A DNA stretch of 9,879 bases, taken from contig JBGQHJ010000171.1 in the NCBI GenBank assembly GCA_041497895.1, forward strand, positions 1 through 9,879, in the 5' to 3' direction. Below are positions 3,001 through 6,000 of the stretch, piece after piece. The position numbers were made by a program. Origin of the DNA: Candidatus Methylomirabilia bacterium (GTDB lineage Bacteria > Methylomirabilota > Methylomirabilia > Rokubacteriales > CSP1-6). How positions within the stretch are numbered: the first letter of the stretch is position 1; each line of letters opens with the position of its first letter.

Positions 3001-6000
3001 GGCGCCGCGGTGCTGGACATCGGGACCGGGACCGGCATCCTGGCCATCGCGGCGCTCCGGCTCGGGGCGCGGTCGGTGCTCGGCATCGACGTGGACCCCG
3101 ACGCGATCGCGGCCACCACGGTCAACGCGGAGCGGAACGGCTGCCGCGGTCTCAGCGCGCGGCTGGCCGAGCCCCAGGACGTCTCCGAGCCGGTGCCGAT
3201 CGTGCTGGCCAACCTGCTCACCCACACCCACCTGGCGCTGGCCTCCCACTACGCGCGTCTGGTGACGCCGGGTGGACAGCTCGTGCTGGGCGGCATGCTC
3301 GACAACGAGGACGACCGGGTCAGCGAGGCGCTGGCCACCAGGGGCTTCGAGCGCCGATCGCGCCTGGCCCTCGAGGGCTGGGCCTCGCTGCGCCTGGCCG
3401 CGCCGACGCGGTGACCCGGTTCCATCTGGCCCCGGGCGCGGTCCAGGGAGACCGCGTGACCTTCGACGCCGCCGCTGCGCACCACCTGGGCCGGGTCCTG
3501 CGCGCCGCGGTGGGCGACCTGGTCCAGGCGGTGGATCCTCACGGCGAGCTCCTGTCCGTACGGCTCACCGCCATCGCACCCCGGCGGGCCGAGGGCCTCG
3601 TCGTCGCCCGGGCCCGGCTCGATACCGAGTCGCCGCTGCGCCTGACGCTGGCGCAGGCCGTGCCCAAGGGCGACAAGATGGAGGGCATCGTCCGCATGAC
3701 CACCGAGCTCGGCGTCACCCGCGTCATCCCCCTGTTGACCGAGCGCGGGGTGATCCGGCTCGAGCCCGACCGCTGGAGATCGCGACTCGCCCGCTGGCAG
3801 CGGGTGGCCCGCGAGGCCGCCCAGCAGAGCGGCCGGGCCGCGGTGCCCGAGATCGCGCCGCCCCGCGCGCTCTCGGGCTGGCGTCCCGACCCGGAGGGCG
3901 ATGGCCTGCTCATCTGCCTGTGGGAAGACGAGCCGCGCGGGCTGTCCGGCCTGCTGCCCCCCGGGCCGTGCCAGGCCGTCACCGTGATCGTGGGACCGGA
4001 GGGCGGCCTCAGCGCGGAGGAGGTCCGCGGCCTCGCGGAGGCCGGCGCGCTCATCGCGGGCCTGGGCCCGCGCGTCCTGCGGACGGAGACCGCGGGCGCG
4101 GTGGCGGTGGCGCTCCTGCAGGCCCGCTACGGAGACCTGGGGCGCGCCTGACCGTGGAGCTGACCGCGACGGGCGCCACGCTCTCCGAGGCCTTCGCCCG
4201 CATCGCCCTCGCCCTCTTCGCCGCCGCCGTCGATCCGGCCACCGTCGGTGACGGCGACACCCGCGAGGTGCGCGCCCATGGTGTCGGCCCCTCCGCCCTG
4301 CTCCAGGCGTGGCTGCAGGAGTGCCTGTACGTGCACGAGGTGGAGGGGTTCGCCTGCCGGGCGATCGAGTTCGCGGTGTTCGAGACCACGCCGGCGGCCG
4401 GAGGCGAGGCGCTCCGCCTGCACGCCATCCTGCGGGGCGAGGAGATCGATCCCTCCCGCCACCCGATCCGGACCGCCATCCGCAACGTCTCGGGCCGCGG
4501 GCTCGCGGTCGAGAACGAGGCCATCGGCTTTCGCGTGAGGGCGATCCTGGATGTGTAGTGTTGCGAAACTGACACAGCGCAAAGTCCGGGGGTGTGTCTT
4601 TCTTGCAACGAATTACATAGCGTCGGCCTTGCGCTCTGGCCATAAATGACCAACAAAACAATTACTTATCTATCTGTGTGCCCAGTGGCATCTGGCTTGC
4701 CTACTATAGCCACGGCTATGGATCTCCAGCAGACCCTGAGACAGCCGGTCACCCTCTCCGGGATCGGTCTCCATTCGGGTGAGCCGGCCGACATGACGGT
4801 CTCTCCGGCCGGGGCCGACACGGGCATCCTGTTCCGCGCCGCCGACGGCACGCTAATCCCCGCCAATGCCGACCACGTGGTGGACACGAACTCCGCGACC
4901 ACCGTCGGCGCCTTTGGCGTGCGGGTCCGGACCATCGAGCACCTCATGGCGGCGGCCGCGGCTCTCGGCATCGACAACGCGGTGGTGGACATCCGAGGCC
5001 CGGAAGTGCCGGCGGCCGACGGGAGCGCCAAGCCGTTCGTGGACCTGCTGCGCTCGGGGGGACGCGTCACCCTACCCGCGCCGCGCCGTCCGATCGTGGT
5101 GACCGCGCCGATTCGCGTGGGGACCGAGAGCCGCTGGCTCGAGGTGCTGCCGGCGGACTCGCTGCGGGTCAGCTACACGCTCGACAACAACCACCCGGTC
5201 ATCGGGCTGCAGGCGGGCACCTACGGGATCACCGAGGACGTGTTCGCCCAGGAGCTGGCCGCGGCGCGGACCTACGGGTTCCTGCGCGACGTGCCCGCGA
5301 TGCGGCAGAACGGCTTGGCCCGGGGCGGCTCGCTGGAGAACGCGGTCGTGGTAGGCAAGCGCTCGGTCCTGAACGAGAGCCTGCGCTACCCGGACGAGTT
5401 CGTGCGCCACAAGATCCTCGACCTGGTCGGGGACCTGTTCCTGCTGGGGCGCCCGCTGCGGGCGCTGGTGGTGGGGCGCAATGCCGGCCACGCCCTGAAC
5501 TACCAGCTGGTGGCGGCGATCCAGAAGGCGGTCGCCGCGGACCGGCGCCGCGTCGTCGCGCGGGTCATCCGGCCCGCCGCTCCCGCGCCGGTGATCAGCA
5601 CCGGTGACGGCTTCCTCCCGGGTGTGGCGGCCCTCTAGGCCGCCGGCCCGCGTCGCGCCCTCGCTCCCAGGCCCCCGCCCCTCCGGCTCGCCGGGCCGGC
5701 TCCGAACCCGCGTCCCCGCTGGGCCCGACGCTATAATGACGTCTTGGCCATGGGAACCTGCCGCCGCCCGCTCGGGAAGGTCCTGCTCGGCGCGAGCCTG
5801 CTCGCCGGCCTCTTGCTCGGGCTGCCGTCCGGGCCCGCGCCGGTGGGCGCCGAGGTCCGGATCAGCAACCTGTCCGTCTTCCTCAACGACTACGACGTCA
5901 CGGTCACGGTGGTGCTCTTCGGCGCGGTACCCGACGCGCTGCACGAGTCCATCCACACCGGCATCGCGGCCCACGTACGCTACTACGTCGAGCTGTGGCA

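Follow-up and report, generated by a model that had tools for sequence, protein, structure and literature searches.

The closest described relatives of the gene considered here are the archeases that activate RtcB (RTCB in human), represented by structure 4n2p and, for human, by 8odo/8odp. According to the available parts of PMC3973293, the D12A, D141A, K117 and H9 variants of the Pyrococcus horikoshii archease are crippled in RtcB activation, and in the human protein D51, D178 and the C-terminal carboxylate hold Mn(C), K156 binds phosphate, and the single changes D51A and K156A abolish guanylylation (available parts of PMC10944509). A second role, that of a 'chaperone' for nucleic-acid enzymes, has also long been suspected for archease, and a methyltransferase provides the one archaeal case: the Pyrococcus abyssi archease acts on a neighboring tRNA m5C methyltransferase (Auxilien et al. 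2007, as cited in the accessible text of PMC3973293 and PMC13713551). As far as the accessible text of PMC13713551 goes, this 2026 study finds no such chaperone role in mammals.

Caution is called for here: a one-off gene neighborhood is easily misread as a functional partnership. The heat-shock operon of Firmicutes has the order hrcA-grpE-dnaK-dnaJ-prmA-rsmE, and degenerate, 'pseudo-enzyme'-like paralogs are known to keep their fold after losing catalytic or ligand residues.

The archease described here, encoded directly behind rsmE in an order of soil bacteria of the Methylomirabilota/Rokubacteria, can be compared with each of these systems. With the RtcB activators it shares the Pfam family and the fold (TMq 0.87-0.90, rmsd 1.3-2.1 Å), as well as the generic motifs LL..W..E.L and GE....(K/R)H, and none of the hallmark residues is missing from its full-length orthologs within the order; in contrast, it has no equivalent of D12/D51, an Arg for K117/K156 and a variable C-terminal Asp, it does not adjoin rtcB, and some of the genomes that have it show no RtcB. 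As in the P. abyssi pair, the archease gene lies beside an RNA methyltransferase gene, and the action proposed is chaperone-like and RtcB-independent, but the neighbor here is RsmE, of the SPOUT class instead of NSUN/Trm4, P. abyssi has a complete archease, and the association described here is one of gene order. The heat-shock genes are arranged as in the Firmicutes operon, again with prmA and rsmE behind them, and the dnaJ-(prmA)-rsmE part also occurs in four sister-family genomes, whereas the insertion of archease after rsmE, followed by lpxC, DUF4390 and ntrYX, is confined to this order. Like pseudo-enzyme-like paralogs, the gene has lost functional residues and kept its fold and an apparent purifying selection; unlike them, it is an ortholog, and the activity lost would be that of a cofactor protein rather than of an enzyme.

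The archease gene behind rsmE

The window (the whole stretch of 9,879 nt that was analyzed) holds the following features:

2 to 2524, + strand: hrcA (cut at its 5' end), grpE and dnaJ, the heat-shock head of the conserved row (Pfam)
2530 to 3414, + strand: prmA, ribosomal protein L11 methyltransferase (PF06325, E 8.5e-56)
3411 to 4151, + strand: rsmE, 16S rRNA m3U1498 methyltransferase family (PF04452, E 1.1e-44, plus PUA_4)
4149 to 4156, + strand: close-packed junction made of the rsmE stop TGA (4149-4151), CC and the archease GTG, with 12-13 tail codons missing
4154 to 4558, + strand: the 134-aa archease gene in its derived, 'triad-less' state, opening with GTG and closing with TAG (4556-4558)
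4481 to 4483, + strand: codon of Arg110, which takes the place of the conserved Lys that binds phosphate (K117 in P. horikoshii, K156 in human)
4550 to 4555, + strand: codons of Asp133 and the C-terminal Val134, the sole part of the metal site left in the window's copy
4646 to 5638, + strand: lpxC, next in the conserved row, 87 nt downstream of archease (PF03331, E 6.7e-96, and synteny)

The genome-wide survey's note had reported a 134-aa archease close behind rsmE in a heat-shock row, and the window bears this out: the frame runs from GTG 4154 to TAG 4556-4558, two bases separate it from the rsmE stop, and Pfam matches verify the row hrcA-grpE-dnaJ-prmA-rsmE-archease-lpxC. The genome (87% complete) yields a pair of archease matches, and RtcB and RsmE once each. 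Its other archease covers profile positions 1-136 and adjoins rtcB on contig C4; the genome's single RtcB comes with a complete archease of its own, and the window's gene does not adjoin rtcB. The two archeases are, as reported, 26% identical over 128 residues, residue 7 of the short form pairing with residue 21 of the complete copy.

The survey had further described the protein as lacking some 19 N-terminal residues, with no room upstream to encode them. The tail is indeed missing, but the loss amounts to 12-13 residues when measured against the gene's own full-length orthologs. An upstream start or a frameshift restoring the N-terminal motif was rejected, the in-frame upstream peptide containing no archease motif. 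Across the genus, the stop-start gap between rsmE and archease is 1-4 nt, so that this upstream peptide varies among genus members, two of which have ATG at the same start codon. In other genera, the aligned body begins 24-66 nt after the rsmE stop, and the intervening stretch codes for G-Y-D/E-Y-F-D/E-V-A/E-A-D. Neither a sigma-70 promoter nor an intrinsic terminator was found in a scan of 3300-4800, and Rfam had no match anywhere in the window.

The protein matches Pfam Archease (PF01951) with an E-value of 1.5e-23 and 84 bits against a curated cut-off of 25, over profile positions 11-136 of 136; as the match begins at position 11, the N-terminus is missing here too. The fold is that of archeases, a beta-sheet with two helices packed against it: an AF2 model of the 134 residues reaches a pLDDT of 95.3 and a pTM of 0.90, and its use as a Foldseek query retrieves archeases only at ranks 1-12, with 4n2p on top (TMq 0.90, rmsd 1.5 Å). 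The window's gene is a real, expressed-looking gene for an archease-fold protein encoded right behind RsmE.

Full-length forms carry three hallmarks: an N-terminal Asp tail, the Lys of KAAT(F/Y)H and a C-terminal Asp. The window's protein lacks this tail, and with it the Asp that binds metal (P. horikoshii D12, human D51). An HMMER alignment against 4n2p and 8btx sets 'irnvs' opposite 'vkait', which brings Arg110 to the place of the Lys; this place is held by Arg in 21/21 genus sequences and by Lys in all 38 full-length orthologs aligned. The C-terminal Asp is kept in eight of the 21 genus sequences, replaced by Glu in the other 13, and lost in related genera; the window's copy ends in D133-V134, opposite D141-I142 (P. 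horikoshii) and D178-I179 (human). Across eroded and full-length archeases, 23 columns are invariant or nearly so. With no N-terminal Asp and an Arg for the Lys, the genus protein would no longer be a canonical RtcB activator.

Ancestry of the locus and its link with stand-alone RtcB

Archease of this kind occurs in 151 of the 183 genomes of the order, and the row hrcA-grpE-dnaJ-prmA-rsmE-archease-lpxC, with rsmE directly upstream of archease, in 64 of the 66 distinct genomes whose locus was examined. The ten-gene block, which continues after archease with lpxC, DUF4390 and ntrYX, is syntenic as a whole, and lpxC is therefore as close a neighbor of archease as rsmE. In most genera, the archease behind rsmE is full length, carries all three hallmarks and is the sole archease. 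The archeases behind rsmE form one clade in the archease tree (100/100), within which the eroded forms make up a single nested clade (100/96) whose sister is a full-length genus; an independent RsmE tree also places the eroded genera and this sister genus on one side of a branch (support 99). The archeases paired with rtcB are a separate lineage, and of five sister-family genomes, drawn from five families, three have their nearest archease beside RtcB and none has it near rsmE.

The survey had taken the window's gene for a second copy that left RtcB; the history is the reverse, the archease behind rsmE being ancestral and order-wide. Its place downstream of rsmE dates back to the common ancestor of the order, and the window's gene is its local ortholog. 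The ancestral form was complete, and the eroded form is confined to one nested clade of five genera, in which the Asp-bearing tail has been deleted, Arg has replaced the Lys and Glu often stands for the C-terminal Asp. The globular body is unchanged.

Three types of RtcB were distinguished: stand-alone (type A), accompanied by its own complete archease (type B), and short and archease-less (type C). Type A is found in 94 of the 183 genomes, and an archease behind rsmE was detected in 84 of these; the other ten comprise one with a partial archease at a contig end, eight without an assembled locus and one outside the check. Among the 94 type A genomes, 93 of which were checked, no stand-alone RtcB was verified to lack an archease behind rsmE. 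Conversely, archease is cleanly deleted in ten genomes and a pseudogene in one more, and type A RtcB was seen in none of the 11 (one holds only a partial RtcB of unassigned type), nor in any of the 36 genomes of the eroded genera. Judging by this gene content, retention or loss of the full-length archease appears to follow stand-alone RtcB, and not RsmE. On the single branch concerned, type A was lost and archease eroded in one or two events each, and their coincidence therefore counts once. Outside the eroded genera, 36 genomes have a full-motif archease and no type A RtcB, and two of them are near-complete assemblies with no intact RtcB (pieces only in G110, a 60-residue remnant in G114); the triad may thus serve something besides type A RtcB, or the losses may be recent.

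Selection on the short archease and its possible role

Within the genus, the median NG86 dN/dS of archease is 0.28 (190 pairs), compared with 0.24 for rsmE, 0.29 for prmA and 0.19 for lpxC, values to be read with a rough method, non-independent pairs and a high median dS (0.84) in mind. The full-length archease of the sister genus reaches 0.15 (the lpxC value of that genus, 0.74, was set aside as coming from mixed BLAST pieces). By part, the short archease has a dN/dS of 0.22 over codons 1-98 and of 0.42 in the C-terminal third. Its frame is intact in 31 of the 36 genomes of the five eroded genera, among whose archeases identity is only about 50%, and gene decay is under way in places, with archease deleted in at least two genomes of one genus of the clade. 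In seven of the 21 genus genomes (completeness 80-92%), the short archease is present with no RtcB match, an absence that is never certain because it rests on incomplete MAGs. Taken at face value, these substitution patterns indicate that the short archease is under purifying selection, also in genomes where no RtcB is seen.

What keeps such a gene in place? We consider it fairly probable that it is an orphaned archease, which has lost canonical RtcB activation and is kept by selection for another purpose. The ancestral full-length archease would have been an in-trans activator of the stand-alone type A RtcB. Archease provides RtcB with a third metal site on GTP; the window's protein would be unable to form it, and the canonical activator function would be lost with it. 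What would retain the short form is a second activity of the archease body that does not need RtcB; most likely, the protein would bind a nucleic-acid enzyme in the manner of a chaperone or adaptor. Among candidate clients RsmE is the nearest, by position only. The short archease behind rsmE thus points to a second archease job.

The order would offer two natural cases that bear on this suspected role. The first is a complete archease standing away from the ligase, in a heat-shock and ribosome-methylation operon, whose retention still seems to track stand-alone RtcB; the second is the same gene in the eroded clade, without the residues for RtcB activation and apparently selected even where no RtcB is found. 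The latter may represent a ready-made separation-of-function variant for probing other roles of the archease fold.

More specifically, the survey had proposed that the gene left RtcB and serves RsmE or PrmA. The separation from RtcB agrees with the missing activator residues and with the retention of the gene in the seven genomes without a RtcB match; for the service to RsmE or PrmA, the evidence is gene order. We regard as unlikely that the short archease, made together with RsmE, is dedicated to this rRNA methyltransferase (or to PrmA) and acts in ribosome maturation as a factor for its specificity, solubility or activation, and give the same doubtful standing to a natural separation-of-function archease acting on co-translated RsmE (or PrmA) under the control of the heat-shock operon. 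If true, a client of this kind would reveal a new factor in bacterial ribosome maturation. The constant position directly behind rsmE, the narrow gap in the genus and selection where RtcB is not found are consistent with such a partnership, which has a precedent in the archaeal archease that improves its neighboring tRNA m5C methyltransferase (accessible text of PMC3973293 and PMC13713551). A weak hint also comes from the rsmE-archease junction, bridged by contigs in four RNA-library runs of two studies; these public runs cover 0.05-0.14 of the stretch with contigs of relatives 90-96% alike, and are no measure of transcript, level or habitat.

Against the partnership, the linkage arose once and is absent in the five sister-family genomes, the retention of the full-length form tracks type A RtcB, RsmE stays intact in the ten genomes with archease deleted, and one genome has prmA-archease-lpxC with no RsmE found in an 84% complete assembly. 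True RsmE-archease fusions number zero among proteins of 236-2000 aa. In mammals, archease has no effect on NSUN2 according to the accessible text of PMC13713551, so that a methyltransferase role is not general. A complex prediction for RsmE and the short archease, both given as alignments, scored 0.02 and 0.01 against a mark of 0.32, which is evidence neither way. In the literature searched, archease and RsmE are paired only in PMC2584109, whose available text has both words in unrelated places, and no paper treats archease in Rokubacteria.

A protein that is still an RtcB helper (of type C or B, by a changed mechanism), or a non-activating competitor at the RtcB active site, is also improbable. 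The short form retains the fold and part of the conserved tip (GE..D..RH), three genus genomes have a type C RtcB and no other archease, and archease and RNA compete for the RTCB active site (available parts of PMC10944509). Asp133 and the terminal carboxylate are still in the window's copy and the Arg could partly stand in for the Lys, so that a weakened activity toward types B or C may be possible. Several observations stand against it: the N-terminal Asp is missing and the Lys replaced, at positions where single Ala changes abolish activation (PMC3973293 and PMC10944509, parts available); Glu takes the place of the C-terminal Asp in 13/21 sequences; RtcB is not seen in 7/21 genus genomes and in others of the clade; and type B RtcB is always accompanied by its own complete archease.

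Least probable is a functionless relic decaying slowly inside an essential operon, as suggested by the erosion of all three hallmark motifs, the relaxed C-terminal third and the outright deletion in some genomes of one eroded genus, together with a pseudogene in another lineage, since the overall dN/dS equals that of the adjacent rsmE and prmA (and is lower over codons 1-98), frames remain intact in 31 genomes of five genera in spite of the divergence of their archeases, the 23 columns persist across eroded and full forms, and the AF2 model is very confident.

Two apparent fusions were set aside as artefacts of gene calling or assembly: in P0042 (430 aa, a single match) and in P0094, the RsmE and archease fragments are split by out-of-frame text. 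A related-locus search with archease alone returned eight loci: two of them hold distant ordinary archeases (LigT-archease-RtcB and CobW-archease), uninformative on rsmE, and the other six belong to the same genus-level group.

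The archease gene behind rsmE

The window, with a G+C content of about 72%, holds a single row of genes, all on the + strand:

2-814, +, hrcA (5' end cut)
889-1431, +, grpE
1433-2524, +, dnaJ
2530-3414, +, prmA
3411-4151, +, rsmE
4154-4558, +, archease (134 aa; GTG start at 4154, TAG stop at 4556-4558)
4646-5638, +, lpxC, after an 87-nt gap behind archease
downstream of lpxC, +, a DUF4390 gene, an NtrY-like kinase and an NtrX-like regulator

Two bases separate the rsmE stop from the archease GTG, and the 134-aa product matches the Pfam Archease profile (E 1.5e-23) over profile positions 11-136 only. 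In the source genome (280 contigs, 87% complete) RtcB and RsmE each have one match and archease has two. The archease outside this row matches the whole profile and adjoins rtcB; it shares 26% identity with the short one over 128 residues. The genome-wide survey's note, which had described a short second archease behind rsmE and a complete one beside rtcB, was correct on this point, since the open reading frame, the profile coverage and the genome matches agree. The twelve best PDB matches to an AlphaFold2 model of the short protein (66 aligned sequences; pLDDT 95.3, pTM 0.90) are archeases without exception, with a TMq of 0.90 and an rmsd of 1.5 A for P. horikoshii archease (4n2p), and a TMq of 0.87-0.89 for human archease, alone or RTCB-bound. 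As modelled, the globular archease body is complete, the N-terminal tail being the sole missing part.

Within the genus, the median Nei-Gojobori dN/dS of the short archease is 0.28 (190 pairs; 0.22 for codons 1-98, 0.42 for the remaining codons), compared with 0.24 for rsmE, 0.29 for prmA and 0.19 for lpxC, and with 0.15 for the full-length archease of the genus sister to the eroded clade (hereafter the sister genus). Comparison of full-length archeases with the shortened, eroded ones leaves 7 invariant and 16 nearly invariant columns, the conserved ones including R37-E38-V39, A41, L49-L50, W53, E56-C57-L58-Y59, H61, E64-G65-F66, H90, G95-E96, R102-H103, and others. Judged by its sequence, the short archease is not a dead gene. 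Two studies contribute four RNA-library runs with contigs (90-96% alike) that span the rsmE-archease junction, one contig continuing into lpxC; this is a weak hint only, because DNA may be present in libraries of this kind and a contig is no proof of a transcript.

Directly 3' of the archease stop, at 4559-4615, lies a strongly conserved, comparatively A+T-rich element, GTTGC..GACACA, followed after about 17 nt by TGTGTC.TTC.TGCAAC. Its inverted repeat GACACA/TGTGTC and the run that follows show no variation among 11 loci from the genus (the window and the collected loci L006, L008, L009, L011, L012, L014, L018, L020, L023 and L025). An Rfam scan of the window gave no match to this element, and a scan of 3300-4800 gave no terminator or promoter call; it could act on lpxC as a leader, or be a promoter or an operator. 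Farther downstream, the end of the DUF4390 gene shares 82 nt (6265-6346) with the NtrY-like kinase if the latter is read in its longest frame, from GTG 6265; the kinase probably starts at a later codon.

Ancestry of the rsmE-linked archease

The named relatives are Candidatus Methylomirabilota/Rokubacteria MAGs. Among 183 genomes of the order, the window's protein has a relative in 162, the Pfam Archease profile has a match in 167 (mostly one each), and RtcB is found in 160; these tallies take in two or three unpublished genomes (G148, G149, G008), and the conclusions are the same without them. Loci were sampled from 66 distinct genomes (70 loci, four of them duplicates), with 21 from the window's genus, 3 and 6 from two related genera, and one or two from every other sampled genus. 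With few exceptions the loci preserve the order hrcA-grpE-dnaJ-prmA-rsmE-archease-lpxC-DUF4390-ntrY-ntrX, and rsmE lies immediately 5' of archease in 64/66, the exceptions being a contig that stops at archease and a genome with prmA-archease and no rsmE. In most genera the frame extends 5' of the aligned body and encodes the N-terminal motif G-Y-D/E-Y-F-D/E-V-A/E-A-D; these full-length forms match the Pfam profile from 1 to 136, and V-V-K-A-A-T-F/Y-H is retained in them, as is the C-terminal (I/L/V)-D-(V/I).

Outside the order, five genomes were compared, one from each of five sister families: archease lies away from rsmE in all five and adjoins rtcB in three, and dnaJ-(prmA)-rsmE is present without archease wherever RsmE was matched (four genomes). 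A maximum-likelihood tree of 86 archeases unites all rsmE-following copies in one clade (100/100), which joins four of the five sister-family archeases (96/95), and sets apart those accompanying type B RtcB (described below), including the source genome's other copy, as a separate clade (100/99). Gene order and tree both mark the archease behind rsmE as ancestral, not as a second copy.

Three kinds of RtcB and the retention of archease

A search with a stand-alone 464-aa RtcB as query sorted the RtcB proteins into three kinds: type A, stand-alone, about 464 aa, with 66-100% identity to the query (e.g. locus L075); type B, about 489 aa, 53-58% identity (e.g. L001), with a complete archease adjoining in 11/11 loci fetched from the order; and type C, short, 374 aa, without an archease of its own (L076, L077). 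With genomes classed by best E-value, at a threshold of our own choice, type A occurs in 94/183 (two partial genes counted), and the rsmE-linked archease was detected in 84 of these. Of the other ten, one carries part of an archease where its contig stops, three have contigs ending within rsmE, five are without any rsmE, the locus therefore not being assembled, and one is an unpublished genome whose locus was unchecked. Because partial gene, contig ends and unassembled loci cover nine of the ten, there is no verified case of type A RtcB without the rsmE-linked archease among the 94.

Archease was detected in 67 and undetected in 22 of the 89 genomes without type A, and in ten of the 22 archease is cleanly deleted, with lpxC coming straight after rsmE. 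One further type A-less genome holds archease as out-of-frame pieces: in G128 (loci L123/L128) two overlapping pieces of full-length type lie behind rsmE (about 1071-1240 of L123), apparently an incipient pseudogene. These eleven cases spread over eight genera, in several of which sister genomes keep the gene, suggesting about eight separate losses. The chance of 8/8 random losses falling in the type A-less class is near 0.003, assuming random loss across the genomes whose locus is assembled, type A being present in about half; the figure is rough, because MAG absences are uncertain and kin are not independent. We infer that the full-length archease behind rsmE is the in-trans activator of the stand-alone type A RtcB.

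The eroded form and the question of RsmE

In P. horikoshii archease, RtcB activation is severely reduced by D12A, D141A, delta-I142 and substitutions of H9 and K117 (PMC3973293). In the human complex, a third Mn2+ is held on the GTP gamma-phosphate by archease D51, D178 and the last-residue carboxylate, with K156 binding phosphate, and guanylylation is abolished by D51A or K156A (PMC10944509). Unlike these two archeases, the window's short protein lacks an equivalent of D12/D51 and carries Arg110 in place of K117/K156; of the hallmark site it keeps Asp133 and the terminal Val134 only. Its canonical RtcB-activating function is probably lost.

Sequences of the window's genus (21) and four related genera start at or near the window's V1, or have a degenerate N-terminus. 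Arg replaces the KAAT Lys throughout the window's genus (21/21 sequences) and in two other eroded genera, Lys being retained in one; Thr and His of KAAT(F/Y)H are gone from the eroded genera, and the C-terminal Asp is kept in 8/21 of the window's genus, replaced by Glu in 13/21, and lost in the others. The 28 eroded sequences form one nested clade (100/96) in the archease tree, which included the motif columns; the sister genus has all motifs intact and shares a nine-residue insertion with them. An independent RsmE tree, in which the eroded genera and the sister genus form one group (99*), is compatible with a single origin, and we read the window's form as a derived, eroded ortholog. Type A RtcB occurs in 0/36 genomes of the five eroded genera; of the window's genus, 11 genomes carry type B together with the archease belonging to it, 3 carry type C, and in 7 (80-92% complete) RtcB was not found; the short archease is present in 20/21. 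Other short archeases (135-142 aa) without the triad (N-terminal Asp, Lys, C-terminal Asp) are present in a library of 1.84 billion representatives.

Does the short archease serve RsmE, as the genome-wide survey's note had proposed? For the eroded form this is possible: rsmE and archease are closely packed and have long been so, archease is under selection without RtcB, and archaeal archease is cited (PMC3973293, PMC13713551) as helping a neighbouring tRNA methyltransferase. However, the rsmE-archease link arose once, in a gene block that is syntenic throughout, and RsmE is intact in the ten archease-deleted genomes. A full archease follows prmA in G182, an 84%-complete assembly in which RsmE was not found; no true RsmE-archease fusion was found among proteins of 236-2000 aa; and the full-length form tracks RtcB, not the nearly universal RsmE. 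The proposal is partly supported. The parting from RtcB stands, though as that of an orphaned ancestral gene rather than of a second copy; a role with RsmE is unproven, and none of the tests run here supports it.

Against the orphan reading, a full-motif archease occurs without type A RtcB in 36 genomes outside the eroded genera, and the eroded archease is itself deleted in some genomes, every absence resting on MAGs. Two near-complete sister-genus genomes without intact RtcB keep the full-motif archease behind rsmE: G110 (L078/L080/L081) has four out-of-register type B-like rtcB pieces and a piece of its archease, and G114 (L079) a 60-residue C-terminal RtcB remnant. These RtcB losses are recent, or else type A RtcB is not all that the triad serves.

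Three further observations were made. In G182 (L045, about 4015-5405; another family) the order is dnaJ-prmA-archease-lpxC, with only about 150 nt from prmA to archease. In the MAG G093 (L008/L085) BLAST recovers rsmE and lpxC each as two or three pieces, in register and in different frames, a pattern most likely due to single-base errors of assembly and not to broken genes. The library protein P0108 (358 aa) fuses a phosphoribosyltransferase domain (PF00156) to a complete archease (PF01951, E 6e-41).
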